Assembly (NCBI GenBank): GCA_003222035.1
Contig: QHUS01000046.1
Coordinates: 4,299 to 68,298 of the forward strand
Direction of reading: 5' to 3'
Origin: Gemmatimonadota bacterium
GTDB taxonomy: Bacteria > Gemmatimonadota > Gemmatimonadetes > Gemmatimonadales > GWC2-71-9
DNA: 64,000 nt
Part shown: in pieces, positions 39,411 to 59,300 of the stretch
Layout of the letters: each line of letters starts with the position of its first letter
Numbering within the stretch: the first letter of the stretch is position 1
The notes under the pieces: generated by a model
Database searches by the model: none
The model's input: only the letters and a program-made list of their open reading frames with translations
What the model was told of the DNA's origin: nothing
Program-made: the position numbers and the translations under genes

Positions 39411-41763
39411 GCTCACCCTCCAGGGCCTTGAGACCCTGCTCCAGCACGGTATCCACCTCGCGCTCACGCAGGGTGCGCGCCGGATCGCGGAACGTGCAGT
39501 GCCAGGCTACGCTGCGGTACCCCTCCGGGATCCCGGACCCGCGATACTCGTCGAACACCTCGAGCCGCTCGAGCAGGCTCCCCGCGGCCCGCCGCAGGAC
39601 GTCGGACACCTGGGCCGCGCTGACGCCTGGCGGGAGCAAAAGCGCGAGGTCGCGCTCAACGGGCGGTTGCGGCGGCAGCGGCCGGTAGGTGATGATCCCG
39701 CGCTCGGCCAGCGTCAACCGCACCTCGAAGCCGAACAGCGGCGCCGCCCACACGGGGGCGTCGGCCTCGAGGGGTCCCGCCCAGCCCAACACGGCCCCGT
39801 TCCCCCGTTCCACCGCCTCCCACCCTACCGCACCGCCTGCCAGCGGCTGCAGGTCGCAGGACGGCGCGGCGGCGGCCACCGCTAACTCAAAGTGGTACTT
39901 CAGGTCCCATATGTCCATATCAGGTACTTTAGCACCATCGGACCAGTGGGGCGGCCTGCGGGCCCCGGTCAGAACCCCCGCTACCGAAGTCCACTCGTCG
40001 ATCGCACTCGCCCTCCGCCGAAACACTGTTCCCACCTCGAAGAGTCGCACGTCGCGGTTGCGATTCGCCCAATTGTGCTCAACGCGCCCGATCAAGCCGG
40101 GAATGAGGCGCCGCCGCAGGTGGGCTTCCTCCACCGACATGGGGTTGAGGATCGCCACCGCGTCGGGCCCGTCCGCGGATCCGATGGGCAAGGTGCGAGC
40201 CTCGAGCAGGCCGGCGGAGGCGAGTGCGTCTCGGACCCGCGCGCGAGCCCGCTCTTCGGGGGCATCGGGCACGGTGCCGGGCCGGTAGGCGCGCAACTCG
40301 TCGGGGAACGCGTCGTACCCCTTGAGGCGGGCGACTTCCTCGATCAGGTCGACCTCGCGCGTTACGTCGGGGCGCCACCCCGGCACCTGGACGGCCAGGC
40401 GAGCGTCCTTCGGCGCCACGAAGAAGCCGACGCTGGTGAGCAGCCGCTCTACCTCGGAGCGCTCGATCGACACGCCGAGCAGCGTGTCCACGCGGTCGGG
40501 GCGAAGGAAGATCGTGCGCTCCTGCTGCGGCTCCGGCCACAAGTCCAGCGCGGGCGCTCGGATCTCGCCTCCTGCCACAGCCGCGATCAGCTCGACCGCC
40601 CGCCGCAACGCGTCGGGCATGCCGAGCATGTCGATGCCGCGCTCGAACCGGTAGCTCGACTCGCTCGACAGCCCGAGCGCCCGGCGGGTGCGTCTGATGC
40701 GGGTCGGTTGGAAGTAGGCGCACTCGAGCACCAGATCGGTGGTGTCGCTGCTCACCTCCGATTCCGCGCTCCCCATCACGCCCGCAACGATGGTGGGCCG
40801 CTCGGCATCGCAGATCGCGGTCATTTCGGTCGTGAGTGTGCGGGTCGCGCCGTCGAGCGTGACGATTTTCTCGCCGGGCCGCGCGCGCCGCACGACGACG
40901 GCCGGTCCGCGCAGCTTGGCGAGGTCGAACGCGTGCAGCGGCTGGTTCAGCTCGAAGAGGATGTAGTTGGTTGCGTCGACCACGTTGTTGATCGGCCGCT
41001 GTCCCACCGCGGTGAGCCGCTCGGCAAGCCAGGCGGGACTGCTCCCCACCCGGACGCCCCGGATCACCGCGATCATGTAGCGCGGGGCGCCCTCGGGATC
41101 TTCCAGGCGAACCTCCACGCCGTCCACGACGCCCCGGTCGGACTGTCGGACGCTCGGACGGTCGGTCAGTGCCTTCGCTCCCGGGATGACGGGAAGCTTT
41201 ACGGGGGCACCAAGCGACGCGCCGAGCTCTCGGGCGACGCCCTTGTGACACAGGAGATCCGGCCGGTTCGCGGCCACGTCGATCACGATCTGGTGGTCGG
41301 CGAGGCCGACGGCGTCAACGAACCGGGTCCCCGGCGGGGCGGCGGTATCGAGCTCGAGAATGCCCGACTGATCGGCGCCGAGCCCGAGCTCCTTGGCCGA
41401 GCAGAGCATGCCATTCGATTCCACGCCACGGATCTTTTTGCGCTCGAGCTTGAGCCCTCCCGGCAGCACGGCACCGACAGGAGCGTAGGGATAGGTCTTG
41501 CCGGCCTGTACGTTCGGCGCGCCGCACACGACTTCGACCGGCCCGTTCGCGCCTCCGGCGTCGACGAGACAGAGAGACAGGCGATCGGCGTCGGGATGCT
41601 TTTTCACCTCGAGCACGCGCGCGATGCGGACGTCGCCCAGCTCCTGGTGGAGCGGGATCACGGCATCTACCGCGGCGACGTGCAGTGTCAGCCGCTCGGC
41701 GGCGTCGCGCGCGTCGAGGGGCCGGTTGAGGAGCGCCTCGAGCCAGCGGCGCGAAACGATCAT
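39385..41763 (-). CDS. pheT: phenylalanine-tRNA ligase beta subunit
   Basis: N-terminal tRNA-binding domain (HPDADRLSLC), then B3/4, B5 and FDX-ACB regions. ATGA overlap with pheS. Confidence 0.95.
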   Translation of the reverse strand: MIVSRRWLEALLNRPLDARDAAERLTLHVAAVDAVIPLHQELGDVRIARVLEVKKHPDADRLSLCLVDAGGANGPVEVVCGAPNVQAGKTYPYAPVGAVLPGGLKLERKKIRGVESNGMLCSAKELGLGADQSGILELDTAAPPGTRFVDAVGLADHQIVIDVAANRPDLLCHKGVARELGASLGAPVKLPVIPGAKALTDRPSVRQSDRGVVDGVEVRLEDPEGAPRYMIAVIRGVRVGSSPAWLAERLTAVGQRPINNVVDATNYILFELNQPLHAFDLAKLRGPAVVVRRARPGEKIVTLDGATRTLTTEMTAICDAERPTIVAGVMGSAESEVSSDTTDLVLECAYFQPTRIRRTRRALGLSSESSYRFERGIDMLGMPDALRRAVELIAAVAGGEIRAPALDLWPEPQQERTIFLRPDRVDTLLGVSIERSEVERLLTSVGFFVAPKDARLAVQVPGWRPDVTREVDLIEEVARLKGYDAFPDELRAYRPGTVPDAPEERARARVRDALASAGLLEARTLPIGSADGPDAVAILNPMSVEEAHLRRRLIPGLIGRVEHNWANRNRDVRLFEVGTVFRRRASAIDEWTSVAGVLTGARRPPHWSDGAKVPDMDIWDLKYHFELAVAAAAPSCDLQPLAGGAVGWEAVERGNGAVLGWAGPLEADAPVWAAPLFGFEVRLTLAERGIITYRPLPPQPPVERDLALLLPPGVSAAQVSDVLRRAAGSLLERLEVFDEYRGSGIPEGYRSVAWHCTFRDPARTLREREVDTVLEQGLKALEGELGVRRRES
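41137..41168. repeat. 4x8-nt array GTCGGACN inside pheT (in frame)
   Basis: GTCGGACT GTCGGACG CTCGGACG GTCGGTCA. It encodes TDRPSVRQSDR. Confidence 0.8.
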
Positions 41764-43362: not shown

Positions 43363-43426
43363 GGTGTCAGGTGCCGGGTGTCAGCTGTCAGGGCCCACCG
43401 GCACCCGACACCTGACCCCTGACACC
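43363..43426. repeat. hairpin with 4x7-nt arms (GGTGTCA / TGACACC) filling the infC-rpmI junction
   Basis: GGTGTCA GGTGCCG GGTGTCA GCTGTCA, an 8-nt loop, then CGGCACC CGACACC TGACCCC TGACACC. About 21/28 complementary. It ends 1 nt from the infC TGA and starts 13 nt from the rpmI ATG. Confidence 0.85.
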
Positions 43427-43427
43427 T

Positions 43428-44175: not shown

Positions 44176-45078
44176 TTAGCCCGCCTTGAGCGGGTCCACA
44201 AGCCCGAACGCCTTGCCGTCGCGCCCCAGACGACCGGCGACGATATCGGGATCGTGCTCGAACAGCAGCAACCATCCTTCCGCTTCGGCCCGCGCGTACA
44301 GGCGGCGCTTCGACTCGAGCGTCACGAGCGGCTCCAGGTCGTAGCCCATGATCCAGGGGAGCGGGAGATGGGCACTGGTAGGCACAAGGTCCGCCAGGAA
44401 GCACGCCCGTTCGCCCGCGCTCTCGACCAGCACTGACTGATGATACGGCACGTGCCCCGGCGTCGGCATGCACCGGATCCCGGGCACGACCTCCGCGTCA
44501 CCATCGATGGGCGTGAACGGCACCGGCTCGAAATTATGTGGCAGATAGCTCGCCGCCGTGCGCTCGTTGGTGTGGCGCGCGAATTCGAGCTCGCGTTTTT
44601 GGACCACGTACGTCGCCTTCGGGAAGCTCAACTTCGTCGGACGGTCGGACGGTGGGACGGTCGGACCGTCCGGCGCTTGGTCGGCCGGCTCGCGATAGGT
44701 ATTGCCGCCGGCGTGATCGAAATGGAGATGGGTATTGATCACCCAGCGAACGTCATCGGGCCGGTATCGGAGCTCCGCGAGCGCGTCTTCGATCTGGGTC
44801 GGCCCGTGCTTCCCCTGATTCACGACGCCGTAGATGTCCCTAAACTTGTCGTCCTCTTTGTTCCCCAGGCCCGTGTCGACCAGGACGAGCCCGTCGCCGT
44901 GCTCGATCAGGAGGCAGCGCAGCGCGAGGGGGATGCGATTGCGATCGTCGGCGGGGATGCGGCGTTGCCACAGCGGCTTCGGTACCACGCCGAACATCGC
45001 GCCGCCGTCGAGGTGCTGCCTGCCGCCCTCCAGGGCATGACACTTCAGTCGACCGACCGTGAGAGACGTGTGGGGCAT
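44176..45078 (-). CDS. MBL-fold metallo-hydrolase
   Basis: LVDTGLG...THLHFDHAGGN (HxHxDH) motifs. The ATG at 45076-45078 shares one base with the upstream TGA. Confidence 0.8.
   Translation of the reverse strand: MPHTSLTVGRLKCHALEGGRQHLDGGAMFGVVPKPLWQRRIPADDRNRIPLALRCLLIEHGDGLVLVDTGLGNKEDDKFRDIYGVVNQGKHGPTQIEDALAELRYRPDDVRWVINTHLHFDHAGGNTYREPADQAPDGPTVPPSDRPTKLSFPKATYVVQKRELEFARHTNERTAASYLPHNFEPVPFTPIDGDAEVVPGIRCMPTPGHVPYHQSVLVESAGERACFLADLVPTSAHLPLPWIMGYDLEPLVTLESKRRLYARAEAEGWLLLFEHDPDIVAGRLGRDGKAFGLVDPLKAG
44636..44675. repeat. 5x8-nt array GTCGGACN inside the MBL-fold hydrolase gene (in frame)
   Basis: GTCGGACG GTCGGACG GTGGGACG GTCGGACC GTCCGGCG. It encodes PDGPTVPPSDRPT. Confidence 0.8.
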
Positions 45079-45713
45079 CAAGACGGAATTGAAATCGGCA
45101 ATCTGTGACGCGGCCTGTCGTGCAGCTCTCGGAGCTCCTCCAGCGTCTCCACCCCCCGCTCCCGTGCCCGCCAGAGCAACGACCGCAGGATGTACGCGGT
45201 CGCGAGCGCATCGCCGAACGCGCGATGGCGCGCCGCGTTATCGACGCCGAAGAACGACGCCAGGTCGTCGAGGCTGCGATGGCGGAGCTCCGGTACGAGG
45301 CGGCGCGTGAGACGAACGGTGCACACCGGTTTGCCGCCGGGTCCCGGAACCCCGACCGCGGCGCATTCGGCCGCGAGAAAGCCCCAGTCGAACCGGGCGT
45401 TGTGCGCCACGAACACAGCGCCTTCGAGCGTCCGTCCGAGATCGAAAACCACGTCGGCAAAGCGCTGCCGGCCGGCGACCAGGGCGTCGGTGATCCCCGT
45501 GAGCCGCGTGACCCACGGGGTGATCGAAATGCCGGGATCGAGCAGCGCGTGGAACGCGAGATGGACCGTGCCACCCTCGAGGATCGCGACTGCCACCTCG
45601 AGGATGCGGCCGCCGCCGGCGGGGGGCGCTTTGGTCCCCGTCGTTTCGACGTCGACGACGGCGAACCGGCAGTGCTCGAGAGGGAGCGGGGGGATCGCCG
45701 CGTTAGAGGTCAT
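45078..45713 (-). CDS. DnaQ-like 3'-5' exonuclease (DNA polymerase III epsilon family)
   Basis: FAVVDVETTG (Exo I), FVAHNARFDWGFL (Exo II) and HRAFGDALATA (Exo III) motifs. Confidence 0.8.
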   Translation of the reverse strand: MTSNAAIPPLPLEHCRFAVVDVETTGTKAPPAGGGRILEVAVAILEGGTVHLAFHALLDPGISITPWVTRLTGITDALVAGRQRFADVVFDLGRTLEGAVFVAHNARFDWGFLAAECAAVGVPGPGGKPVCTVRLTRRLVPELRHRSLDDLASFFGVDNAARHRAFGDALATAYILRSLLWRARERGVETLEELRELHDRPRHRLPISIPS

Positions 45714-46941
45714 CGCGCCGGAGCGGCAACGTCATGCACCGGGGGCCGCCGCCCCCCCGCACCAGCTCGCTTCCCTCCATGGTGATCACGGCGCGTGCAC
45801 CCCCACCGTCGTCGAAGGTCTCCTCGCCCGCCTGGAGGTCTACCGCCGCCACGGTCTTGAACCCGGCGTGCTCGAGCTCGCGGAGCGTGGCTTCGTTGCG
45901 CGCGTAGGTCAACGCGACACCGGGCCGGACGGTGAAGAAGTTGCACGCCGACGACCACTGCTCCCGCTCTTGCAGCGCGCGGTCCGAGCCCCCGCAGAAG
46001 ATCGGCTCGAGAGGATGATCCACCGCCTGCATCGCCGCGAAGAAATTGGGCATCTCCTTCACACCCTTCGATTTCTTGCGGCGGTGCAGCACGGCGAGGC
46101 GCTCCGGTCCCACGAAGTGCGGCGGATAGATGCAGCACAGGTCGCGGTCCAGTTGCGTGAAGATCATGTCCAGGTGAATGGCGGTGCGCTCGTTCGGCAG
46201 CACGACGACGATCACGTCCTTCACGCCGCAATGCTCGAATACCAGGTCGCACAGATGATCGAGGGCCGCTGGGCTGGAGCGCTCACTGAAGCCGAGCAGC
46301 AGGAGATCGGGGCGTACCGGGTGCACATCCCCCCCCTCCAGCGTGTAGTTGTTCCGCTTCTCCTCCGACCCGTCGTACAGGATGCCGGCGTTCTCCAGAC
46401 AGGGATGGTAGCGGAACAGCGCCTTGATGAGCAGCTCCTCGGTCCAGCGCACCCCGTACCGCATCGAGCCAATGATCGAGTGCTCGCCGATCACGATCCC
46501 CACGTCGCGCGTGAAGAACAGATTAGGGAGGGGGGGGAGCGCGTACCCCGTCTCGTTGAGCGCGCGGGCGATCGGCCCGGCGTCTTCCAGGGCGCCCTCG
46601 ACCATGACGCCGACGAGCGCTTCCGGGGAGAGCGCCGCGAGCTGCTTCGCCAGCGCGTCGGACGACACCACCTCGAGCGCGCGCGTTACGAGGAACTCGC
46701 GCACGTCCGGGCGCGCGACCAGCTCCGTCAGGAGGGTCCGGACCTCGTAGACCTGCGCGAACCGCTCGAGCACCGCCACGAAGCGGTGATGCTCGCGCTG
46801 CGCGAGCTCCAGGTCTATGATGTCGTCGTAGAGATAGTCTTCGCGGCTACCGGGCGTGACCGCCACCAGCTCGCGGCCGGGCGTGTGGACCAGGACGGCC
46901 CGCAGCGAGCCGATCTCCGACGTGACGTGGACGCGCGCCAT
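45703..46941 (-). CDS. arcA: arginine deiminase family protein
   Basis: MARVHVTSEIGSLRAVLVHTPGRE N-terminus and the C-terminal GGGGPRCMTLPL catalytic-Cys motif. Confidence 0.8.
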   Translation of the reverse strand: MARVHVTSEIGSLRAVLVHTPGRELVAVTPGSREDYLYDDIIDLELAQREHHRFVAVLERFAQVYEVRTLLTELVARPDVREFLVTRALEVVSSDALAKQLAALSPEALVGVMVEGALEDAGPIARALNETGYALPPLPNLFFTRDVGIVIGEHSIIGSMRYGVRWTEELLIKALFRYHPCLENAGILYDGSEEKRNNYTLEGGDVHPVRPDLLLLGFSERSSPAALDHLCDLVFEHCGVKDVIVVVLPNERTAIHLDMIFTQLDRDLCCIYPPHFVGPERLAVLHRRKKSKGVKEMPNFFAAMQAVDHPLEPIFCGGSDRALQEREQWSSACNFFTVRPGVALTYARNEATLRELEHAGFKTVAAVDLQAGEETFDDGGGARAVITMEGSELVRGGGGPRCMTLPLRRDDL

Positions 46942-46943
46942 GG

Positions 46944-47095
46944 GGCGGAATCTAACGCGGAACGCGGAAGGCGGAGCCGAAGTCGGAACGCGGAAGGCGG
47001 AACGCGGAACAGCAAGGAAAGGTCGCTCGGCTTGCCGCCCTCGGAGCGAAGTTCGCTTGACTGTTCCGCATTCCGCGTTCCGAGTTCCGAGTTCT
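46944..47095. repeat. heptamer-armed inverted-repeat element, copy A (GCGGAAN units / loop / NTTCCGC units)
   Basis: CGGAA recurs at 46958, 46965, (46972, 46978), 46984, 46991, 46998 and 47005. TTCCG recurs at 47064, 47071, 47078 and 47085. The inner 26 nt of the arms are 23/26 complementary, with a 52-nt loop. The element fills the rex-stop to arcA-ATG gap. Confidence 0.9.
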
Positions 47096-47714
47096 AGCGG
47101 TTCGCCAGCGCGAAGCTCAGCGTCTCGAGCTCCAACGCCATGTTCACCGACTTGACGACCACGTCGGCGGGGACCGCGAGCTGGACGGGCGCGAAGTTGA
47201 GAATCGCCTTCACCCCGGCGTGCACCAGGCGGTCGACCACCTCCTGGGCGGACTCCGCCGGGGTCACCACGATCGCGATGTCGCTCGGCTCCTTGCCGAG
47301 GTCGCCGTCGAGGTGCCGGATGTCACGCACCACGAGCCCATTCCAGCGCGAGCCGATTTTCTTGGGGTCCTTGTCGTAGATGGCCGCGACGTGGAAGCCG
47401 CGTTGCCGAAACCCCGGGTACTGGACCAGCGCGCTGCCGATCCGCCCCGCGCCGACGAGGACGACGCGGTAGGTGCGGCGCAGCCCCAGGATATCGCGGA
47501 TCCGGGCCGTGAGCTCCGAGACGGAGTAGCCGAGGCCGCGTTTGCCGAACGAGCCGAAGAACGAGAGGTCTTTGCGAACCTGAGCGGACGTGGTGCCGCC
47601 GCGCCGGGCCAACTCGGCCGAGGAGATGGTCGTCTGGCCCTGCGCAGCGAAGTGTTCGAGGAACCGGAGATAAAGGGAGAGCCGTCGCACCGTGCTCTCG
47701 GAGATCTTCCGCAT
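47094..47714 (-). CDS. rex: redox-sensing transcriptional repressor Rex
   Basis: RRLSLYLRFLEHF...SSAELARRGGTTSAQVRKDLSFFGSFGKRGLGY winged helix, plus the Rossmann motif VVLVGAGRIGSAL. Confidence 0.9.
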   Translation of the reverse strand: MRKISESTVRRLSLYLRFLEHFAAQGQTTISSAELARRGGTTSAQVRKDLSFFGSFGKRGLGYSVSELTARIRDILGLRRTYRVVLVGAGRIGSALVQYPGFRQRGFHVAAIYDKDPKKIGSRWNGLVVRDIRHLDGDLGKEPSDIAIVVTPAESAQEVVDRLVHAGVKAILNFAPVQLAVPADVVVKSVNMALELETLSFALANR

Positions 47715-47731
47715 TGTGAATTATTTCACAA
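47714..47731. promoter_or_regulatory. Rex operator (ROP), a perfect palindrome TTGTGAA-TTAT-TTCACAA
   Basis: Exact match to the TTGTGAAnnnnTTCACAA Rex consensus. It spans from the rex ATG (47712-47714) to beyond the ksgA TGA (47726-47728). Confidence 0.8.
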
Positions 47732-48550
47732 TCGTGCGCTCCAACGCAAGAGTCGGGCGAAGATTTCCGGCGCCAACGTCTCGGGACGCGCCGCGGGATC
47801 GAGCCCGAGCGCCCCGAGTCCTTCCTCGACCTGTGCGGCCGGGCGCCCTGTCGCACCCAGCAGCACGTTGCGCAGCTGTTTGCGGCGGCGCGCGAAGCAG
47901 GCGGTGACGAACCGGCGAAACGCCGCGAGCTCGGCGACCGCGACGAGCGGATGGGCGAGCGGCGTGAGACGGAGCAGCGCGCTCGCGACGTTGGGGCGTG
48001 GCGTGAACGCGCCGGCGCGAACCGGGAACAGTTTCTCCACGCGACACACGGCTTGCACACCGACCGAGGGTGCGCCGTACGTCTTCGAGCCCGGCCGCGC
48101 CGCGATGCGATCGGCCACTTCGGCCTGGACGAGAAACACGATGCACGCCGGGAGCGGCGGCGTGAGGGCTTTGTCGATCAGCGGGGAGGTGATGGCGTAG
48201 GGGATGTTGCCGATCACCTTCAATTGCGGATTGGCGATTGCGGATTGCGGATTGGCAAGGCAAGCTACGGCCAGCGCATGCCAGTCCTGCTTGAGGGCGT
48301 CCCCCGCCACGACGTCCACATTGCCCAATCCCCCATCCGCAATCCGCAATCCGCAATCATGAGCCAGCCGGCGGTCCCGTTCGATGGCGATTACGTAACG
48401 TACGCGAGGGGCGAGGACGGCCGTCAGGCTCCCCTCCCCCGCCCCGATCTCGACCACGACGTCCCCGGGCGTCGGATCGAGGGCGTCGACGATGCGCTGC
48501 AGGATGTTCCGGTCGGTGAGGAAGTGCTGGCCGAGGGGGGGACGGGTCAC
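47726..48550 (-). CDS. rsmA: 16S rRNA (adenine1518/1519-N6)-dimethyltransferase
   Basis: LGQHFL, VVEIGAGEGSLT and IGNIPYAITSP motifs. GTGA overlap with the upstream stop. Contains two in-frame heptamer arrays (see the repeat feature). Confidence 0.9.
   Translation of the reverse strand: MTRPPLGQHFLTDRNILQRIVDALDPTPGDVVVEIGAGEGSLTAVLAPRVRYVIAIERDRRLAHDCGLRIADGGLGNVDVVAGDALKQDWHALAVACLANPQSAIANPQLKVIGNIPYAITSPLIDKALTPPLPACIVFLVQAEVADRIAARPGSKTYGAPSVGVQAVCRVEKLFPVRAGAFTPRPNVASALLRLTPLAHPLVAVAELAAFRRFVTACFARRRKQLRNVLLGATGRPAAQVEEGLGALGLDPAARPETLAPEIFARLLRWSARL
48224..48356. repeat. pair of inverted 5x7-nt arrays (TTGCGGA / TCCGCAA) inside the ksgA coding sequence
   Basis: 48224-48258 is TTGCGGA TTGGCGA TTGCGGA TTGCGGA TTGGCAA. 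48322-48356 is TGCCCAA TCCCCCA TCCGCAA TCCGCAA TCCGCAA. They are 29/35 complementary with a 63-nt spacer. Both are in frame (peptides LANPQSAIANPQ and DCGLRIADGGL). Confidence 0.9.
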
Positions 48551-51780: not shown

Positions 51781-52256
51781 TTGCCGAATTTCGTTTGAAG
51801 CGCCTTCCGGACCGCGGGATGCACGAGCCGCGACACGTCGCCGCCGAAGCGCGCGACTTCACGCACCAGGCTCGAGCTCAGGTAGGTGAGGTCGAACGCC
51901 GGCACGAGAAACACCGTCTCGACGCCAGGAGCGAGGTTCCGGTTCATGAGCGCCATTTGAAACTCGTACTCGAAGTCGCTCACCGCCCGCAGGCCCCGGA
52001 CGATGAGCGTCGCGCCCGCCGCGCGGGCGAAGTCGGCGAGCAGGCCGTCGAACGAGCGGATCTCGATACCCGGGTCCTCCACCGCCTGCCGGATGAGGGC
52101 CACCCGCTCGTCGAGCGTGAACAGGGGCTGTTTGCCGACGTTCACGGCCACCGCCACGATCACGCGGTCGCTGAAGGCGCGCGCCCGGCGGATGAGATCC
52201 TCGTGGCCGCGCGTGATCGGATCGAAAGAGCCGGGATAGATCGCGACGCGGGTCAC
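51777..52256 (-). CDS. coaD: phosphopantetheine adenylyltransferase
   Basis: IYPGSFDPITRGHEDL...RGLRAVSDFEYE motifs. Confidence 0.9.
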   Translation of the reverse strand: MTRVAIYPGSFDPITRGHEDLIRRARAFSDRVIVAVAVNVGKQPLFTLDERVALIRQAVEDPGIEIRSFDGLLADFARAAGATLIVRGLRAVSDFEYEFQMALMNRNLAPGVETVFLVPAFDLTYLSSSLVREVARFGGDVSRLVHPAVRKALQTKFGK

Positions 52257-52777
52257 GGCGCGTAGATGAAGGTCACGGCGGTATCCCCGTAGCGCCGTGT
52301 GTCGTCACCCGGAATCGGCTGGTCGGCCGGGTGCTCGATCGAGACGATGCGCGCAAACGGGTTCACCCGGAACATCGCGACGAGGCGCGCGGCATGCCCG
52401 CTCGCGTACGGCGGGTCGGCGAAGGCGACGTCGTACTGGCCGGGGTGCAGCTGTTCCGCGAACCGGACGGCGTCCACGCGATGCACGGCGGTGCGGTCCT
52501 CGACCTTGAGCGTGGTGATGTTGGCCTTGAGGGTGGCCAGCGCGGATCGGTGGGTCTCCACGAAGTCGGCGGACAGGGCCCCGCGGGACAGCGCCTCGAG
52601 CCCGAGCGCTCCCGAGCCCGCGAACAGGTCCAGGACGCGGGCGCCGCGCACCGGGCGTTGCAGGATCGAAAACCACGCTTCGCGCACGCGGTCGCCGGTG
52701 GGGCGAACCGCATCCCCGGCGGGCGTCTTCAGGCGGCGACCCTTGAACTCGCCGGCGATTATCCGAACGAAACCCAA
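52253..52777 (-). CDS. rsmD: 16S rRNA (guanine966-N2)-methyltransferase
   Basis: ORF 52253..53452 trimmed to TTG 52775-52777 (..FVRIIAGEFKGRRL...DLFAGSGALGLEALSRGA...DPPY). The upstream part of the ORF reads through the repeat element and recJ. Confidence 0.8.
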   Translation of the reverse strand: MGFVRIIAGEFKGRRLKTPAGDAVRPTGDRVREAWFSILQRPVRGARVLDLFAGSGALGLEALSRGALSADFVETHRSALATLKANITTLKVEDRTAVHRVDAVRFAEQLHPGQYDVAFADPPYASGHAARLVAMFRVNPFARIVSIEHPADQPIPGDDTRRYGDTAVTFIYAP

Positions 52778-52795
52778 CCCCGCCCCCTTCCCAGC

Positions 52796-52895
52796 GCGGA
52801 AGTCGGAACGCGGAACGCGGAACAGAAATGGGAGGTCGCTCGGCGCGCGACGCCGGTTTCGATGTTCCGCGTTTCGCCTTCCGCGTTCCGCGTTC
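52796..52895. repeat. heptamer-armed inverted-repeat element, copy B (same family as 46944..47095)
   Basis: GCGGAAG TCGGAAC GCGGAAC GCGGAAC, a 40-nt loop, then GTTCCGC GTTTCGC CTTCCGC GTTCCGC GTTC. The arms are 24/28 complementary. The loop shares AGGTCGCTCGGC with copy A. The element ends inside the recJ TGA. Confidence 0.9.
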
Positions 52896-54600
52896 ACACA
52901 CTCGGCGCCATCGCCGCCACCCGTGCCTGCAGCGTCTCGCGTCCCTGCCATTCGTCGCGCTCTAGACGGAACGCCACATCCAGCCGATCGGCGAGCCAGT
53001 GGTCGGGCACGGCATCGGCCACCTGGAACGCGATCGCGGGGAGCGCGCCCGACTCGTCGTCGAGGGTGAAGCGCAGGTGATTGGTTCCCACGCGGCGGGC
53101 GCCCACCGCGCGCGCGTGCCGCACGCCGAACACCGGCGCCGGGTTCCCCGGACCGCACGGCTCCAGGTAGCGGATCAGCTTCTCCAGCTCCTCGCTGACG
53201 AGCCCCAGGGGCAGCTCCAAGTCCACCCGTTGAGCGGGGACCAGGTCGTCGGGGTCCAGAAGGTCGCGTGCCACCGCGAGAAACGCAACACGGAAGGCGT
53301 CGTAATGCTCTCGCCGGATGGTGAGGCCCGCCGCCATCGTATGCCCACCGTATTTCTCCAGGTGATGCCCAACGCGCTGCAGGGCGGCGTGCAGGTCGAA
53401 CCCCGCCACGCTCCGGCCGGAGCCACGTCCCACATCGCTCCCCTCGTCCCACCCGATCAAGAAGGTCGGCCGCCCGTACCGCTCGACGAGCCGGGATGCC
53501 ACGATCCCGATGACGCCCGGGTGCCAGGCGTCGGCGGCGAGGACCAACGCATGGTCCTCGGGTCGCAGGACTCGTTCGGCCAGCTCGACGGCCTCGTCGA
53601 GGATGCGCTGATCGAGCTCCTGACGGCGCGCATTCAGGGTCTCGAGCTCGCGTGCGATGGCGGCCGCCACGTCGGGATCGTCCGAAAGCAGCAGCCGCAG
53701 CCCGTCCATCGCGTCGCCGATCCGTCCCGCCGCGTTGAGGCGAGGCGCCAAGATGAAGCCGACGTGTCCCGCCTTGATCGGTTTGCCCCCGAGTCCCGCG
53801 GTGTCCACCAGCGCCCGCACGCCCGTCCAGTGCGAGGCCGCCAGCAGCTTGAGGCCGTGCCGTACCAGGATGCGGTTTTCACCGGTGAGGGGCACCACGT
53901 CGGCGACCGTGGCCAGCGCCACCAGGTCGAGGAAATGGAGCGGGAGGTGGGGTGACACGCCGAGCGCCGGCACCAGCGCTTGCGCCAGCTTGAAGGCAAC
54001 GCCGGTGCCGCAGAGATCCTTGTCCACGGACGGGCAGTCGGCGCGCCGCGGGTCGAGCACGGCCGACGCCGGGGGCAGCGCGTCGCCGGGAAGATGGTGG
54101 TCGGTGACGATGACCTCGATGCCGGCCGCGCGAGCGGCGCGGACCGCGTCGATCGCGGTGATACCGCAGTCGCAGGTGATGATCAGGCCGGCGCCCACCC
54201 GCTGGGCCTCCTTCAGTCCCGCGGGCCCGAAGTCGTACCCGTCCCGCAGGCGGTGCGGAACGAACGCGTGGGCGCGCCCGCCCACACTCGAGAGCACCCG
54301 GGTGAGCAGCGCGGACGCGCACTGGCCATCGACGTCGTAATCGCCGTGCACCAGGATCGGCACGCTCCCCCGGACGGCCGCGGCGATCAGGTCGACGGCC
54401 CGCGGCATGTCGGCCCACGCGCCGGGGTCGGACAGGCGCTCCAGGTCGGGCCGGAGGAACGCCTTGGCGTGCTCGGGCGCGCCCAGGCCGCGCTGGACGA
54501 GGATGGCGGCGAGCGGTTCGGGGATGTGGAGGTCTGAGGCCAGGGCCGCGGTGAGCCCGGGATCGGCAGGCGGGGCGACCGACCAGCGGGCGCTAATCAT
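52894..54600 (-). CDS. recJ: single-stranded-DNA-specific exonuclease RecJ
   Basis: ORF trimmed to ATG 54598-54600 (ATGA overlap). VHGDYDVDGQ, ITCDCG, VTDHH and YGGHTMAAG motifs. Confidence 0.9.
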   Translation of the reverse strand: MISARWSVAPPADPGLTAALASDLHIPEPLAAILVQRGLGAPEHAKAFLRPDLERLSDPGAWADMPRAVDLIAAAVRGSVPILVHGDYDVDGQCASALLTRVLSSVGGRAHAFVPHRLRDGYDFGPAGLKEAQRVGAGLIITCDCGITAIDAVRAARAAGIEVIVTDHHLPGDALPPASAVLDPRRADCPSVDKDLCGTGVAFKLAQALVPALGVSPHLPLHFLDLVALATVADVVPLTGENRILVRHGLKLLAASHWTGVRALVDTAGLGGKPIKAGHVGFILAPRLNAAGRIGDAMDGLRLLLSDDPDVAAAIARELETLNARRQELDQRILDEAVELAERVLRPEDHALVLAADAWHPGVIGIVASRLVERYGRPTFLIGWDEGSDVGRGSGRSVAGFDLHAALQRVGHHLEKYGGHTMAAGLTIRREHYDAFRVAFLAVARDLLDPDDLVPAQRVDLELPLGLVSEELEKLIRYLEPCGPGNPAPVFGVRHARAVGARRVGTNHLRFTLDDESGALPAIAFQVADAVPDHWLADRLDVAFRLERDEWQGRETLQARVAAMAPSV

Positions 54601-55301: not shown

Positions 55302-57027
55302 CTCTCCTCCTCTTCGCGATCTTGTAGCGCGGGTAACGCTTGCGGAGCTCGTCGAACACGCGGCGCTTCTCCGCAATCAGGGATACCTGTCGCTCGGGGC
55401 TTTCGAACGGCAGCTGGTCGTCGAGCTGCTCCAGGTGCCGCTCGAGCCGCCGGGCTTCCATCCAGCTCACGGCCAGCTCGTACATTTCGTTCGGATCACG
55501 CCCGCCGAGCCCCTCCGCCTTGAGCAGCTCGTAGGCCCGCGCGGAGGTGTCGTCGAGCGCCAGGACCGCGTCGTCGGCGACGCTCTCGAACACGGCGCGG
55601 TACGGCGCGAACTCGACTTCCTCGGGGTCGACGGCGTCGGTCACGCGACTCTTCCAGGGTTCGCCCTCGAGCATCAGGAGCAGGAGGGCTTTCTCGGCGC
55701 TGGCGGGCAGGACGGGGGAGGACGGGGGAGGAGGGTGGAGGACGGTGGAGGGGCCACGCGCCCCGACTTCGCGCTCGAGAACGTCCTTCCGCACCCCGGC
55801 CGCCTCCGCTGCCCGGGAGATGTAGAGCTCCCGGGTAATGGGATCTTTCGCCGCCCGAATCGTCGGCAGGAGGCGATCGAGGGCTCGGCGCCGACCCGGT
55901 AGGGTACCGAAGAATCCTTTGCGGTCGAGGATCTGGATCTTCCGCTCCAGCACGTCGACCGCGTCCTCGAGGATCTGCTCGAGCGCCGCAGCTCCCCCCT
56001 TCTGCACGAGCGTGTCGGGGTCCTCGCCGCCGGGGAGCGTGGCCACGCTGACGCGCAACCCTTCGCGCAGCAGCTCGTCGCCCGCCCGGAAGGTGGCGCG
56101 CAGGCCGGCCTCGTCGGAGTCGTACAAGAGGATCACCTGCGGCGCGTGGCGTTTCACCAGCTGGGCCTGGTCCGGCGTGAGCCCGGTCCCGAGCGGCGCC
56201 CCCACCTCCTCGATACCGGCGAGCGACAGACGAAGCACGTCGAAATACCCCTCGACCAGGATGGCGCGCTCCGCCTTGCGCATCGCGTGCTTCGCGACGT
56301 GCAGGTTGTAGAGCAGTTGCCCTTTGTGGAAGATCGGGGTGTCCGGGGAGTTGAGATACTTGGGCTCTCCTTCGCCGAGAATGCGACCGCCGAACCCGAC
56401 CACGCGGCCCCGCAGGTCGTGAATTGGGAAGAGCAAACGACCGCGGGACCGGGGCGCGAGCGTGCCGTCCTCGCGTTTAGCCAACAGACCCGCCTCGAGG
56501 AGCACTTCGTCACGCACGCCCAAGACTTTCATCGCCTCGAGGAACGCCTTCCCCTTCGGGGCGTACCCGAGGCCCAGCGGCAGCACGGTGTCGAGATCGA
56601 GGCGGCGGGTCTTCAGGTAATCGCGAGCGATTTGGGCTTCGGGACTGTCGCGCAACTGGTGGGCGAACCAATCCGCCGCCGCGGCGACGGCGCTATAGAG
56701 CGGCTCGCGCGGATCGGGACCGGTGGGGCCGCGCTCGGGGATCGCGATTCCCACGCGACGCGCCACCTCGCGGACCGCGCTGGGATAGTCCATGCCGAGC
56801 TTCTTCATCAAGAACGTGAAGACGTCACCGCCGGCGTGACACACGAAGCAGTAGAACATCCCCTTCCGGGGGATGACCGCGAAGTTGCGATGCGCCCCGC
56901 CGTGAAACGGACACGCCGCCCGGTAATCGGATCCGGTGCGTTTCAACTCGACGTGCTCGCCGATGATCCCGACCAGGTCGGCCGCTTCGCGGACCTGCTC
57001 GATCACGTCGTCGGGAATCAGGCTCAC
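55285..57027 (-). CDS. dnaG: DNA primase
   Basis: Zinc finger CPFHGGAHRNFAV...CFVCHAGGD and TOPRIM (VEGYFD...DSDEAG). GTGA overlap with mutS2. Confidence 0.9.
   Translation of the reverse strand: MSLIPDDVIEQVREAADLVGIIGEHVELKRTGSDYRAACPFHGGAHRNFAVIPRKGMFYCFVCHAGGDVFTFLMKKLGMDYPSAVREVARRVGIAIPERGPTGPDPREPLYSAVAAAADWFAHQLRDSPEAQIARDYLKTRRLDLDTVLPLGLGYAPKGKAFLEAMKVLGVRDEVLLEAGLLAKREDGTLAPRSRGRLLFPIHDLRGRVVGFGGRILGEGEPKYLNSPDTPIFHKGQLLYNLHVAKHAMRKAERAILVEGYFDVLRLSLAGIEEVGAPLGTGLTPDQAQLVKRHAPQVILLYDSDEAGLRATFRAGDELLREGLRVSVATLPGGEDPDTLVQKGGAAALEQILEDAVDVLERKIQILDRKGFFGTLPGRRRALDRLLPTIRAAKDPITRELYISRAAEAAGVRKDVLEREVGARGPSTVLHPPPPSSPVLPASAEKALLLLMLEGEPWKSRVTDAVDPEEVEFAPYRAVFESVADDAVLALDDTSARAYELLKAEGLGGRDPNEMYELAVSWMEARRLERHLEQLDDQLPFESPERQVSLIAEKRRVFDELRKRYPRYKIAKRRRGAPGP
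55711..55750. repeat. 4x10-nt array GA(C/G)GG(G/T)GGAG inside dnaG (in frame)
   Basis: GACGGGGGAG GACGGGGGAG GAGGGTGGAG GACGGTGGAG. It encodes STVLHPPPPSSPVL in the linker before the C-terminal domain. Confidence 0.85.
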
Positions 57028-59300
57028 GCGCGGAACTCCACGATGGTGACGCCATGGCCGCCCTGATTCGGCGGCGCAAAGCCGAAGCGCGTGACCCGTG
57101 AGTCGGCGGCGAGCCGCTCGTGCACGAACTGACGCAGGGCCCCGGTGCCCTTACCGTGAATTACGCGGAGATACGGCAAATCGGCCGACACGGCATCGTC
57201 GAGGGCCTTGACGAGCAGCGGCTCGGCTTCGGCAACGCGGAGGCCGATGAGGGAGATCTCCGCAGCCGCGTCGACGGACGGTGTGCGAGCGGTGGAGGGC
57301 GGTCGAGGATGGTGGAGGGCGGTGGAGGGAGAGGCCTTACGTGCGCCCTTCAGCTCGTCCAGCGACATCCACCCTTCCCTGGCCGGATCCCCGGCCGTTT
57401 CCCCGGCCGTTTGTTCGATTGCTTTTTCTACGAGCCGCCGCGCTTCTTTCGCCGTCGCCTCGTCTACCGCGGCGCGCGCCCGGCCGAGCGCTTCTTCGAC
57501 CTTGCGGCGGGCTTCCAGGAGGTAGGCCCGCGCCTGCTCGCGCGCCTGGCGTTCGAGCCCCGACGCGCGCGCCTTCACCTCCTGTTCGCGTGCGGCTACC
57601 TCGGTGGCCCGAGTCTCGACCCGCTCGGCGTCGGCACGGAGCGCAGAGTCGCGGGCGGCGAGCTCTTGCTCACGGGCCTCGAGCTCCCGGGCGCGCGCCT
57701 CGACGGAGGCCAGGAGCGCGTCGAGCGTGCGCTCGGCGCGGGGCACGGCGCGCTCCGCGATCTCCAGGACCGGAGCGGCGACCCCGAGGCGGCGCGCGAT
57801 AGCCAGCCCGTAGGAGCGACCCGGTACGCCCTTGAGCAGGCGATAGGTGGGGGTCAACGTCTCGGCGTCGAACTGAAGCGACGCGTTCACGATCCCCACG
57901 GTGTCGGCGGCGAGCTGCTTCAAGGCACCCAGGTGAGTTGTCGCCAGCGTCACCGCGCGACGACGGGTGAGCGTCTGCAATACCGCCGTCGCCAGCGCGC
58001 CACCCTCGGCCGGGTCGGTGCCGCTGCCGATCTCGTCGAGCAGAATCAGCGATCCGGCACCCGCCCGCTCGAGAATGTCTCGCAGGACAGCCACGTGAGC
58101 GGAAAACGTCGACAGGCTCGCCGCGATCGACTGCCGATCGCCGATGTCCGCGAACACGTCGGTGAATACCGGAAGCACGGATTGCGGACCGATGGGCGGG
58201 ATGATGCCGCTCTGCGCCATGAGGACGAGCAGGCCCACGGCTTTGATCAGCACCGTCTTGCCACCAGTGTTTGGCCCGGAGACCAGCACGGTGAATTCGT
58301 CAGGTGCCAGGACGAGATCGAAGGGAACGGCATCGGGGACGAGCAGCGGGTGCCTGCCGCCGCGGATCTCCAGCGCACCCGGGCCGATCGACGGCGCGAA
58401 GCCGTTCACCTCCACCGCGTACCGCGCCCGAGCGCACAGGTCGTCAAACGCGATGCACATCTCCCACGCGGCGGCAATCGCCTCGCTCTCGGGGCGCAAC
58501 AGCTCGGTGAGGTCCCGCAGCACCTGCAGGACTTCGCGCTGCTGCGCAACCTCCGCCGCGCGCAGGGCGTTGCCGAGCTCGATCACTTCCGGCGGCTCGA
58601 CGAACACCGTGGCCCGCGTCGCCGACTCGTCGTGCACGATCCCGCCGATCCGGGCCCGCGCCGTGCTGCGCACGGGGATCACGTAGCGGCCTTCGCGCAC
58701 CGTGACGGCGGCATCGGGCGCACGCTCGGCGGGATCGAGGGCGGCGAGCATGGCTTCGAGCTTCTGGACCAGCCGAGCGCGTGCGTCACGAACGGAGCGG
58801 CGGGCGTGCGCAAGCCCGCGCGACGCACCATCCAGCACCTGACCGTCGCCGTCGAGCGAAGCGGCAAGCCGCTGCTCCAGTGCCTTCGGGGGAAGCTTCA
58901 CGCGGAGCGCCGCGGTCCGCGGCGCGTCGGTCTCGAGGCGCGCGAGCTCGGCAGCCACGACGCGCGCGGCCACCAGCGTGCGGCCTACGCCTGCCAGCGC
59001 CGCTCCCTCGAGTGCGCTCCCCGGCACGCCCAGCAGCTCGACCACAGCCGCGATGTCGGGGACGGGCTCGGCGCGGATGCCGTCGTCGGTGAGCAGCAGG
59101 GCGGCGAGCTCCGCCACCTGCGCGAGGGCGTCGCGGACGGTGCCGGGATCGGTGGAGGGGACGCGGTGGGTCACGCGCGCGGCGCCAAGCGGTCCCACGG
59201 CATGCGCCGCCACTCGCTCCAGCGCGGCCGGGAACTCGAGCGTCTCCAGGACTCCAGGGGTCCGTGGGCTGGCGCCCGGCGTCGGTGCCCCACCGGTCAT
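57024..59300 (-). CDS. mutS2: endonuclease MutS2 (with an Smr domain)
   Basis: Walker A SGPNTGGKT, DEIGSGTDP, and the C-terminal Smr motif LRVIHGKGTGALR. Confidence 0.9.
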   Translation of the reverse strand: MTGGAPTPGASPRTPGVLETLEFPAALERVAAHAVGPLGAARVTHRVPSTDPGTVRDALAQVAELAALLLTDDGIRAEPVPDIAAVVELLGVPGSALEGAALAGVGRTLVAARVVAAELARLETDAPRTAALRVKLPPKALEQRLAASLDGDGQVLDGASRGLAHARRSVRDARARLVQKLEAMLAALDPAERAPDAAVTVREGRYVIPVRSTARARIGGIVHDESATRATVFVEPPEVIELGNALRAAEVAQQREVLQVLRDLTELLRPESEAIAAAWEMCIAFDDLCARARYAVEVNGFAPSIGPGALEIRGGRHPLLVPDAVPFDLVLAPDEFTVLVSGPNTGGKTVLIKAVGLLVLMAQSGIIPPIGPQSVLPVFTDVFADIGDRQSIAASLSTFSAHVAVLRDILERAGAGSLILLDEIGSGTDPAEGGALATAVLQTLTRRRAVTLATTHLGALKQLAADTVGIVNASLQFDAETLTPTYRLLKGVPGRSYGLAIARRLGVAAPVLEIAERAVPRAERTLDALLASVEARARELEAREQELAARDSALRADAERVETRATEVAAREQEVKARASGLERQAREQARAYLLEARRKVEEALGRARAAVDEATAKEARRLVEKAIEQTAGETAGDPAREGWMSLDELKGARKASPSTALHHPRPPSTARTPSVDAAAEISLIGLRVAEAEPLLVKALDDAVSADLPYLRVIHGKGTGALRQFVHERLAADSRVTRFGFAPPNQGGHGVTIVEFRA
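57291..57330. repeat. 4x10-nt array GGTGGAGGNN inside mutS2 (in frame)
   Basis: GGTGGAGGGC GGTCGAGGAT GGTGGAGGGC GGTGGAGGGA. It encodes PSTALHHPRPPST in the linker before the Smr domain. A perfect 12-nt tandem duplication (TCCCCGGCCGTT x2) lies at 57388-57411. Confidence 0.85.

Follow-up and report, generated by a model that had tools for sequence, protein, structure and literature searches.

The rex-arcA hairpin of a Gemmatimonadales genome, probably one copy of a lineage-wide palindromic repeat family

Introduction

Repetitive extragenic palindromic (REP) units are imperfect palindromes of 20–40 nt, usually tagged with GTAG or CGTC (PMC3733652). Two REP units inverted around a spacer make up a REPIN. 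Here, we compare with these and other described repeats a hairpin that fills the 152-nt spacer between rex and arcA (arginine deiminase) in a Gemmatimonadota bacterium of the order Gemmatimonadales (GenBank assembly GCA_003222035.1, contig QHUS01000046.1, positions 4,299–68,298 of the forward strand). This stretch of 64,000 nt is called the window, and positions are counted from its first nucleotide. A first-pass annotation, made from the letters alone, had proposed a terminator, attenuator, processing site or translational gate at this junction. We consider it probable that the hairpin is instead a copy of a DNA-level palindromic repeat family that runs through the lineage of soil Gemmatimonadales, and not a regulator dedicated to rex and arcA.

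Repeats built from short tandem units have been described in several bacteria. Geobacter metallireducens has paired sites of three to five tandem 7–9-nt units, with the members of a pair on opposite strands at variable distance. They occur in dozens of copies and are unique to that species in its genus, and a further family of four-heptamer elements lies within and between genes (Aklujkar et al. 2009, PMC2700814). These sites were read, without a test, as binding sites of IHF/HU or of a global regulator (PMC2700814). The heptameric simple sequence repeats (SSRs) of Xanthomonas (GGGAATC) and Nostoc (GGGGAYT) are strongly over-represented and mostly intergenic; their length and sequence vary between close relatives at the same loci, and some form stem-loop inverted pairs (Rehm et al. 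2015, PMC4692102). Heptameric repeats are likewise over-represented in Beggiatoaceae, where the mechanism was not given. Reports of over-represented heptamers in bacteria go back to 2007, none of them with a mechanism.

Two further systems are relevant to copies at gene ends and inside genes. Rickettsia palindromic elements (RPEs) are intragenic miniature inverted-repeat transposable elements, which lie in frame in unrelated housekeeping genes and add peptides at positions compatible with function (PMC10969869). DNA uptake sequences (DUS) and uptake signal sequences (USS) occur in lineage dialects and at high density, form inverted stem-loop pairs at gene ends and are also placed within genes where the sequence is permissive (Frye et al. 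2013, PMC3630211). In targeted full-text searches, no description of repeats such as those reported here was found for Gemmatimonadetes.

Results

Structure of the rex-arcA hairpin

The spacer lies between rex (47094–47714, minus strand; Pfam Put_DNA-bind_N and CoA_binding, corresponding to a Rex-type N-terminal DNA-binding domain and a CoA-binding Rossmann domain) and arcA (45703–46941, minus strand; Pfam ADI). Tandem Repeats Finder (TRF) detected a period-7 array of 8.4 copies at 46954–47010, a complementary period-7 array of 4.6 copies at 47063–47094 and a 26-nt duplication (period 26, 2.3 copies) at 46944–47003. The best inverted pair, 46979–47012 and 47061–47094, was 34 nt long and 88% complementary with 48 nt between the arms, and the inner 25 nt of the arms were 92% complementary. 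On the plus strand, the rex-side arm (47061–47094; TRF, inverted-repeat search and sequence) consists of about 4.6 NTTCCGN heptamers. On the gene (minus) strand it is the 5' arm and reads GAACTCGGAAC... It pairs with the GCGGAAN heptamers (plus strand) of the arcA-side arm (46979–47012; inverted-repeat search and folds). Next to the latter lies an extra, unpaired array segment (46944–46978; TRF), which stems from the 26-nt tandem duplication of arm sequence and is also present in the relative L066 but absent in L021. This duplication explains why the arms are unequal, with about 9 versus 4.5 units.

In the predicted folds the loop measures 48 nt (47013–47060). It contains the family core AAGGAAAGGTCGCTCGGC at 47014–47031 and a small inner stem, TCGCTC (47023–47028) with GAGCGA (47044–47049), which is present in the predicted minimum-free-energy fold. 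The rex-side arm ends in GTTC (47091–47094), and base 47094 is common to the arm and to the rex stop codon TAG (47094–47096, minus strand; ORF list and sequence). Pfam, the list of open reading frames (ORFs) and TRF thus agree with the first-pass annotation on the gene identities, on the 152-nt spacer filled by the element over the whole junction and on the unequal heptamer arrays. Its complementary arms, its loop stem and its one-base overlap with the stop codon were likewise borne out.

The hairpin was also recovered by folding, compared with shuffled sequences. The 171-nt region was predicted to reach −89.6 kcal/mol on the minus strand (z = −5.7) and −93.2 kcal/mol on the plus strand (z = −5.2), and the 122-nt core −74.1 kcal/mol (z = −9.2) and −74.8 kcal/mol (z = −7.2), respectively. 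No shuffle matched the native folding energy of either segment on either strand, and the element folded about equally well on both strands. The same element was present in nine further independent soil-metagenome contigs encoding an identical ArcA, which differed only in one two-position unit swap, one single-nucleotide polymorphism and one 1-nt indel. An assembly artefact was ruled out by its presence in independent assemblies. At strain level, the variation among these nine near-identical contigs was too small to inform on the structure.

A repeat family in soil Gemmatimonadales

An ArcA search of species-representative genomes retrieved 80 loci with an ArcA identity of 79–94%, all from uncultured soil Gemmatimonadales or Gemmatimonadota metagenome-assembled genomes (MAGs). 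The window and these 80 species-level loci (1.216 Mb) were searched for tandem arrays of at least three copies, with a second-order Markov control. The search detected 360 period-7 arrays (20 in the control) and 51 period-8 arrays (7 in the control). The first-pass annotation had made its proposal depend on related copies existing elsewhere, and such copies are abundant. An inverted partner (match of at least 12 nt, at most 250 nt away) accompanied 269 of the 360 period-7 arrays (75%). There were 93 distinct period-7 units, headed by GCGGATT, GCGGAAC, GCGGAAT and GCGGAGT.

A second family copy lies in the recJ-rsmD spacer of the window (52795–52895; TRF, sequence and folds), 5.8 kb from the rex-arcA element. 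It has GCGGAAC arms and the loop core GAAATGGGAGGTCGCTCGGCG, adjoins the recJ stop codon and has predicted folds of −58.6 and −68.4 kcal/mol. Orthologous elements occupy the same site in relatives. The core ATGGRAGGTCGYTCG is common to the rex-arcA element, this second copy and about 24 elements in relatives. The elements that share it have the form (GCGGAAY)n – ..ATGGRAGGTCGYTCG.. – 0 to ~25 variable nt – (RTTCCGC)n and lie at five or more sites, namely recJ-rsmD, rex-arcA, the arcA-downstream junction, rnt-MBL (metallo-beta-lactamase) and others. The core has no fixed orientation relative to transcription (8 versus 16). At the recJ-rsmD site of the close relatives L013 (4202–4277) and L015 (4157–4243), loops of 18–20 nt lie between identical GCGGATT arms. 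Since these loops are exact reverse complements of each other, the loop appears to have been inverted in place by arm-arm recombination.

A metagenome scan with the arm-loop junction GCGGAACGCGGAACAG yielded at least 120 loci. Among the matches listed, the loops fell into discrete classes of 17, 25–26, 39–42 and 58 nt. Every class has a conserved core of its own, and GGAACAG…CTGTTCC encloses the loops of all classes. Loops of 40 nt are palindromic and in effect two cores, and loops of 20 nt are one core. Such discrete classes with cores of their own point to copying from master sequences. Solitary 'array + ATGGAAGACGC' modules were found on a putative viral contig. The existence of a singlet module as well as an inverted doublet corresponds to the organisation of REP and REPIN.

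Like miniature inverted-repeat transposable elements, the elements end in terminal inverted repeats, as the arms reach the element ends in the form AAC[GCGGAAC]n ... [GTTCCGC]nGTT. Inspection of the flanks of 55 elements revealed a partial unit that prolongs the palindrome (AAC[…]GTT). Many termini are fused to the stop codon of the upstream gene, as in TGA-AC, TAA-C or TAG-AAC.

Genome dialects, arm order and strand symmetry

The arm sequence tracks the genome and not the locus. Elements at different sites of the same genome shared their unit in 20 of 35 comparisons (0.57). For elements of different genomes at one orthologous site, the figure was 113 of 771 comparisons (0.15). In 5000 permutations within sites, the observed value was never reached.

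The order of the arms is nearly invariant for CGGA-type units. The purine-rich arm came first, as 5'-(…CGGA…)n … (…TCCG…)n-3', in 62 of 63 elements, and with other units it did so in 35 of 41 (35:6). This order reads identically on both strands and is unaltered by inversion. Slippage combined with palindrome correction is insufficient as an explanation, since both orders would then be expected equally, whereas a ratio of 62:1 was observed.

As the genes of the block all run in the same direction, the sense strand is known. Of the stem mismatches, 37 would permit G·U pairing on the sense strand and 63 on the antisense strand. The mean folding energy was −58.9 versus −59.2 kcal/mol, and the sense strand was the more stable one in 50 of 101 elements. 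As a sense-RNA signature is missing, the complementarity of the arms (about 92%) is a property of the DNA. The first-pass annotation had suggested an analysis of covariation in a collection of copies. Strand-specific covariation did not emerge, as the stem mismatches showed no sense-strand G·U preference. Two candidate roles of the units were rejected. A CsrA-type GGA sponge was ruled out by the base pairing of the GGA motifs and by the many units without GGA, and a G-quadruplex reading, as in Xanthomonas, was ruled out for GCGGAAN units, which have no G-runs.

The orthologous junction in other species

Synteny of rex and arcA was found in 68 species-level loci, with a spacer of −4 to 186 nt. 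The exceptions were five loci with more than 1 kb and one with a different 50-nt tandem repeat. The junction of L070 measures 368 nt and holds tandem units of about 50 nt (…CCGGGGTTAACCAACCCATTCCAAGTTCCGGACTCTTG…), broken by a run of N. In 12 of the 68 species, the spacer was 11 nt or shorter and had the form cgTTAG-ATTCCGCCCC-atg. Array hairpins occupied the junction in 18 of the 68, with at least six different units, namely GCGGAAC, GCGGAAT/GCGGAGT, GCGGATT, GCAGAAT, GGGTTAT and GGTCATC. Five species had one-sided arrays, and several had short fillers resembling decayed remnants, e.g. CACTCCGCACTC in L024 and GTGGAATGCGGAG in L015.

Conserved at the junction is the arcA-proximal (G)TTAGATT-N7-ATG, of which the TTAG is the original rex stop region. 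Where the junction is filled, a new stop codon marks the left edge of the filler, and Rex keeps its C-terminus (…NR). The ancestral junction holds one ATTCCGC unit. In the window, the conserved segment is GTTAGATTCCGCCCC (46942–46956, minus strand; species comparison), which is not array sequence. The first-pass annotation was therefore mistaken in taking the 5' flank of arcA for array sequence, as the 15 nt 5' of the ATG are ancestral junction and conserved in array-free relatives. In eight relatives (L014, L016, L028, L031, L038, L042, L050 and L062), a module TTAGCCGGCG-N(10-12)-CCGGTTAGATT was observed just upstream of arcA. It can be described as a duplicated TTAG around a small GC hairpin, or as a −35-like TTAGCC 18 nt from TAGATT. 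At the arcA-downstream junction, a comparison of filled with empty sites was confounded by an exonuclease gene that is N-terminally extended or absent in many species, and direct inspection was used instead.

Copies inside genes

Of 104 paired elements, at least 29 are located within ORFs that remain intact, among them those of rsmA, dnaG and pheT. In the window, rsmA (47726–48550, minus strand; 16S rRNA dimethyltransferase) contains inverted GCGGATT arrays at 48223–48254 and 48326–48358 (element 48223–48358; TRF, translation and a predicted fold of −72.6 kcal/mol). They are translated in frame as …AHDCGLRIADGGLGN-VDVVAGDALKQDW-HALAVACLANPQSAIANPQL… and flank the S-adenosylmethionine-binding GDAL motif. 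The array peptides align with variable or gapped surface segments of Bacillus subtilis KsgA. In relatives without arrays, this RsmA segment is compact (…LAAALDEERLKLLPGDALRLDWPRVAKIVGNIPY); in species with arrays, about 10 aa are inserted in frame on either side of the GDAL motif. The inserted peptides vary with the unit of the genome: ECGMRNAECG / IPHSAFRIPHF for GCGGAAT, DCGLRIADCG / NPQSAIRNPQF for GCGGATT and ELGTRNAERG / VPRSAFRVPRF for GCGGAAC. The heptamer phase relative to the reading frame is identical for all three units (E-x-G-x-R-x-A). Since this phase is the same across species with different units, the unit seems to have changed in place.

If the arms in rsmA recombined with each other, an essential portion of the gene would be inverted or lost. 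In L020, where RsmA is encoded about 1.3 kb upstream of arcA, the whole inter-array segment including GDAL..DW is missing. This apparent arm-to-arm deletion probably inactivates the enzyme in that species.

Intact pheT genes contain in-frame hairpins in L070, L033 and L090, as do intact dnaG genes in L015, L030, L043, L016 and L053, and a single tblastn alignment runs through each of them. The predicted energies of the in-gene hairpins range from −37 to −84 kcal/mol. Because the dnaG, pheT and rsmA ORFs are intact through them, the hairpins cannot be obligatory stops for transcription or translation, and both the RNA polymerase and the ribosome must pass the predicted hairpins in these three genes.

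Expression signals of rex and arcA

A −10-like TAnnnT motif, TAGATT (46949–46954, minus strand; species comparison), lies 7 nt upstream of the arcA ATG (46939–46941). In 76 of 77 species, TAnnnT is located 5–10 nt (mode 7) before this ATG, and it is kept with or without fillers. It is also kept in L027, L048 and L087, where the gene preceding arcA is on the opposite strand. With a divergent gene in front, arcA must be transcribed from a promoter of its own in these three loci. In high-G+C bacteria, a TANNNT −10 box is often all that a leaderless promoter has. We infer that TAGATT is a −10 element and that the arcA mRNA is leaderless or nearly so. arcA thus probably has its own leaderless-type start signal. 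The neighbouring genes rpmI, rplT and pheT have a Shine–Dalgarno (SD) sequence. The first-pass annotation was right that arcA has none, although its explanation by the array does not hold, since arcA lacks an SD in every species, with or without the element. The 56 nt including the arcA start lie outside the hairpin and have no significant predicted structure (z = +0.77).

Simple scans detected neither a sigma-70 consensus promoter nor a terminator at the element. No U-tract follows the hairpin, the 3' flank of which is GACUUCGGCUCCGCC... At the gathering threshold, Rfam gave no match at the element (the only match in the window was a tRNA elsewhere), and a permissive Rfam scan gave a generic resemblance to miRNA hairpins only, with 28 bits versus a gathering threshold of 168. 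The first proposal, in which the element would terminate or attenuate transcription or gate translation for rex and arcA in particular, therefore finds no support in a variable junction without a U-tract or an Rfam match and with the arcA start outside the hairpin.

A scan with the Rex operator consensus TTGTGAAnnnnTTCACAA revealed a perfect operator, TTGTGAATTATTTCACAA (plus strand, 47714–47731), which overlaps the rex start and was the sole good match in the window; none was found at arcA or within the element. Rex control of arcA through the element was thus ruled out, as there is no operator there. The operator over the rex start codon points to autoregulation of rex rather than to Rex control of arcA. 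The rex gene itself has no SD and an AT-rich −10-like stretch directly upstream, and its sequence suggests that it is autoregulated and possibly leaderless.

Further arrays in the window and in relatives

Arrays of other periods were also observed in the window. Octamer arrays of the GTCGGACN type lie in coding sequence at 8141–8170, 8606–8630, 41135–41165 and 44636–44670, with a RumA-like methyltransferase gene (…AVGRSDSRTVG…), the C-terminal tail of a biotin carboxylase, pheT and an MBL-fold gene (…PDGPTVPPSDRPT…) as hosts. Decamer arrays of the GGTGGAGGAC/GGGGAGGACG type lie in ORFs at 30858–30900, 55705–55751 and 57289–57329, hosted by a RecN/SMC-like gene, the dnaG linker and an unannotated ORF of 859 aa. 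The dnaG linker is the site of G-rich heptamer hairpins in relatives. A CACCTGA/CTGACAC heptamer array of 3.7 copies (43402–43427) occupies the infC-rpmI spacer just upstream of the rpmI SD.

The putative viral contigs L213 (IMG/VR, 12.5 kb retrieved) and L212, with 63–66% G+C, contain the same kinds of arrays. L213 has six GGGGAAT/GCGGAAT arrays in both orientations, several of them followed by ATGGAAGACGC, and L212 has a GTTGAGA inverted pair. On the metagenome contigs L209 (12.8 kb) and L111, the GCGGAAC and GGGAGCA families coexist at about one array per kb and occupy many gene boundaries. Gene callers disagree at arrays: rsmD (window 52253–52900; L001 versus L002) is called either as 232 aa through the element or as 172 aa, and rsmA is called as 274–280 aa in near-identical strains.

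Discussion

The origin of the rex-arcA hairpin

The best reading of the repeat is that it is REPIN-like, with an effect on RNA that is generic at most. In its favour are the cores shared between sites, the discrete loop classes, the occurrence of singlets and doublets, the constant order of the arms and the units specific to each genome. The basic module is a tandem array of about 4–5 heptamers (here GCGGAAC-like) with a short core (ATGGRAGGTCGYTCG), and the hairpin form is an inverted doublet of modules, as in a REPIN. Copies fill gene junctions, typically from the stop codon to a few bases before the next start, and also occupy tolerant linker regions within genes, persisting for long at a site. 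Homogenisation of the arms appears to act at three levels, i.e. within an arm through slippage, between arms, and among the copies of one genome. The rex-arcA copy probably arose or inserted between the rex stop and the arcA-proximal segment in an ancestor of only some of the species.

If transcribed, the hairpin would form a very stable 3' end of the rex mRNA and, by analogy, may block 3' exonucleases. Stop-proximal REP hairpins reportedly affect the expression of the upstream gene in Escherichia coli, in connection with trans-translation, a finding ascribed to Liang, Rudd and Deutscher in 2015. By the same analogy, the stem starting at the stop codon may interfere with the termination of Rex translation. 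In this way, the element may serve the rex mRNA generically, as any stable 3' hairpin would. The arcA gene is most likely expressed from its own TAGATT downstream of the hairpin, which would place the hairpin upstream of the arcA transcription start.

Several observations weigh against a REPIN-like family. A consistent target-site duplication was not seen in the flanks of the 55 elements; at the rex-arcA junction, CGN plus the stop codon (left) and the native CGTTAG (right) might represent either a duplication of 6 bp or a mirror copy. Pfam scans found no transposase or RAYT-like gene (RAYTs being Y1 transposases) among the ORFs of the 64-kb window, and the fetched loci, which are fragments of genomes, had no recurrent gene bracketed by two elements. 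This negative result for a partner enzyme is weak, as longest-ORF calls are noisy at 68% G+C. No insertion sequence was seen in the window or the examined loci either, and hence no parent with the same termini. In rsmA, the arms flank host coding sequence, which does not fit a single insertion, and the phase-kept change of the unit looks like in-place conversion rather than re-insertion. The persistence of sites while the unit changes would fit selection by a trans-acting reader equally well. For arcA, the leaderless promoter is proposed from the −10-like motif, and no −35 consensus was found.

Alternative explanations

The main rival of the REPIN-like reading treats the arrays as sites to which an oligomeric protein, specific to the genome, binds on the DNA, e.g. 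a nucleoid-associated factor or a global regulator. Such sites would arise in tolerant sequence, be maintained by selection and co-evolve with the specificity of the protein. We consider this unlikely. The fixed convergent order of the arms (62:1) is what a reader acting as a dimer would need, and the genome-specific units and the strand symmetry without a sense-RNA signature speak for it as well. The elements also persist at orthologous sites, including rsmA, dnaG and pheT, where the unit changes and the frame phase is kept, and the paired sites of G. metallireducens are a precedent in interpretation, which was a guess there (PMC2700814). However, no candidate protein has been identified, and a period of 7 bp is short for typical recognition sites. 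The several unrelated unit families per genome (window, L209) would need several readers. Loop subfamilies with conserved cores resemble copied sequence rather than independently selected sites, and the decayed remnants and the presence and absence of elements at rex-arcA speak against strong selection at that junction. An uptake-sequence-like drive, in which the arrays are preferred by the DNA uptake or recombination machinery and spread through biased replacement of orthologous segments, is very improbable. The dialects, density, inverted gene-end pairs and intragenic copies in permissive regions known for DUS (PMC3630211) are mirrored here, and recombination would fit the in-place, phase-preserving replacement of the rsmA unit. 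But DUS and USS are single 10–12-mers and not tandem arrays, several unit families coexist in one genome, and arrays are also found on putative viral contigs.

The arrays could also be a pure mutational by-product, with neither dispersal nor a reader, i.e. heptameric microsatellites that grow by slippage and become palindromic by template switching at quasi-palindromes. Heptameric SSRs are over-represented in several bacteria and vary between close relatives (PMC4692102), the rex-arcA element has unequal arm lengths and a 26-nt duplication, the single ATTCCGC unit of the ancestral junction could seed an array, and L020 has its arm-to-arm deletion. We nevertheless judge this very improbable. 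It predicts both arm orders equally, against the 62:1 observed, and predicts neither the same unit at different sites of one genome nor loop cores common to different sites or discrete loop-length classes. Slippage as the sole cause is already contradicted by the genome-specific units, the arm order and the loop classes. Both pure slippage and an uptake drive are less likely than the binding-site arrays. The least supported idea is a locus-specific riboregulator, in which the hairpin would link arcA to rex by terminating or attenuating transcription, by serving as a processing site or by gating translation. We assign little probability to it. A very stable hairpin does lie exactly between the two genes and begins at the rex stop codon, and stop-proximal REP hairpins reportedly affect upstream genes in E. 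coli. Yet the element is not conserved at the junction, which in other species is empty or holds different hairpins or remnants. Its loop orientation is not fixed, a U-tract and an Rfam match are missing, both strands fold equally without a sense-strand G·U bias, and the same class of hairpin is tolerated inside essential ORFs. The arcA start is outside the hairpin and unstructured, the upstream motif of arcA is kept even when the gene is separated from rex, and the window's single Rex operator overlaps the start of rex instead of lying at arcA.

Significance

Returning to the REPIN-like family, the rex-arcA hairpin is one copy of a repeat, and annotating it as an attenuator of rex and arcA should be avoided. 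As a regulator of these two genes it would be ordinary or wrong, and the repeat class is of more interest than the locus. The arm order, the within-genome dialect and the in-frame tolerance are together unexplained by any described bacterial repeat family. It is possible, albeit doubtful, that they reflect an undescribed genome-wide system of fixed-order inverted heptamer arrays with genome dialects, hundreds of sites (some of them in frame within the essential genes dnaG, pheT and rsmA) and a trans-acting reader or writer. The candidates for the latter are a dedicated recombinase or transposase, a templated repeat-adding enzyme or a co-evolving DNA-binding protein. If this were true, the arrays would represent a novel kind of intragenomic replicator or a system that marks the chromosome, with the rex-arcA hairpin as one copy. 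The very high array density and the many sequenced relatives make the question directly testable by comparative and population genomics. The annotation of MAGs is affected as well, as gene callers extend or truncate ORFs across arrays.

Comparison with known systems

To our knowledge, the combination of tandem-heptamer arms, a nearly invariant arm order, genome dialects that change in concert at fixed sites and in-frame copies in essential genes has not been described before. Intrinsic terminators also have a G+C-rich stem-loop directly downstream of a stop codon; the elements described here differ from them in having no U-tract, stems of about 30 bp, loops of 17–58 nt and copies in essential ORFs. 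DUS and USS differ in being single 10–12-mers recognised by a competence pilin, with a function shown in transformation assays, whereas the present evidence is from sequence only. Like RPEs, the elements are in-frame palindromic repeats in housekeeping genes, as in rsmA, dnaG and pheT. RPEs are, in contrast, about 150 bp long with a fixed consensus and a conserved peptide, they are not tandem arrays, and no genome-specific unit turnover has been described for them.

The heptameric SSRs of Xanthomonas and Nostoc are alike in that tandem 7-nt units are over-represented, and the junction fillers differ between species here too. They have been studied as G-quadruplex formers and are mostly solitary arrays, whereas the Gemmatimonadales arrays are 75% inverted pairs, are not prone to form G-quadruplexes, occur in genes and have a fixed arm order. 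The G. metallireducens sites resemble the Gemmatimonadales elements in their tandem short units and opposite-strand pairing. They belong to another phylum, have other units and are fewer (8–49 copies per family), and their study did not include an analysis of arm order, concerted evolution or in-frame translation.

Differences from REP and REPIN concern the arms, the location and the partner gene. The arms are direct tandem GCGGAAN arrays without self-complementarity and without a GTAG or CGTC tag. REP units are extragenic, whereas 29 of the 104 paired elements (more than one quarter) lie in frame inside genes. Unlike in REPIN-RAYT systems, no RAYT was found among the window ORFs and the fetched loci, and the arm unit changes in place. 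In other respects the two are alike. Both are inverted doublets of a short repeat around a spacer, with a hairpin predicted in single-stranded DNA or mRNA. Both occur in hundreds of copies per genome with discrete classes of spacer length and with singlets too, and both form genome-specific families with copies at gene junctions.

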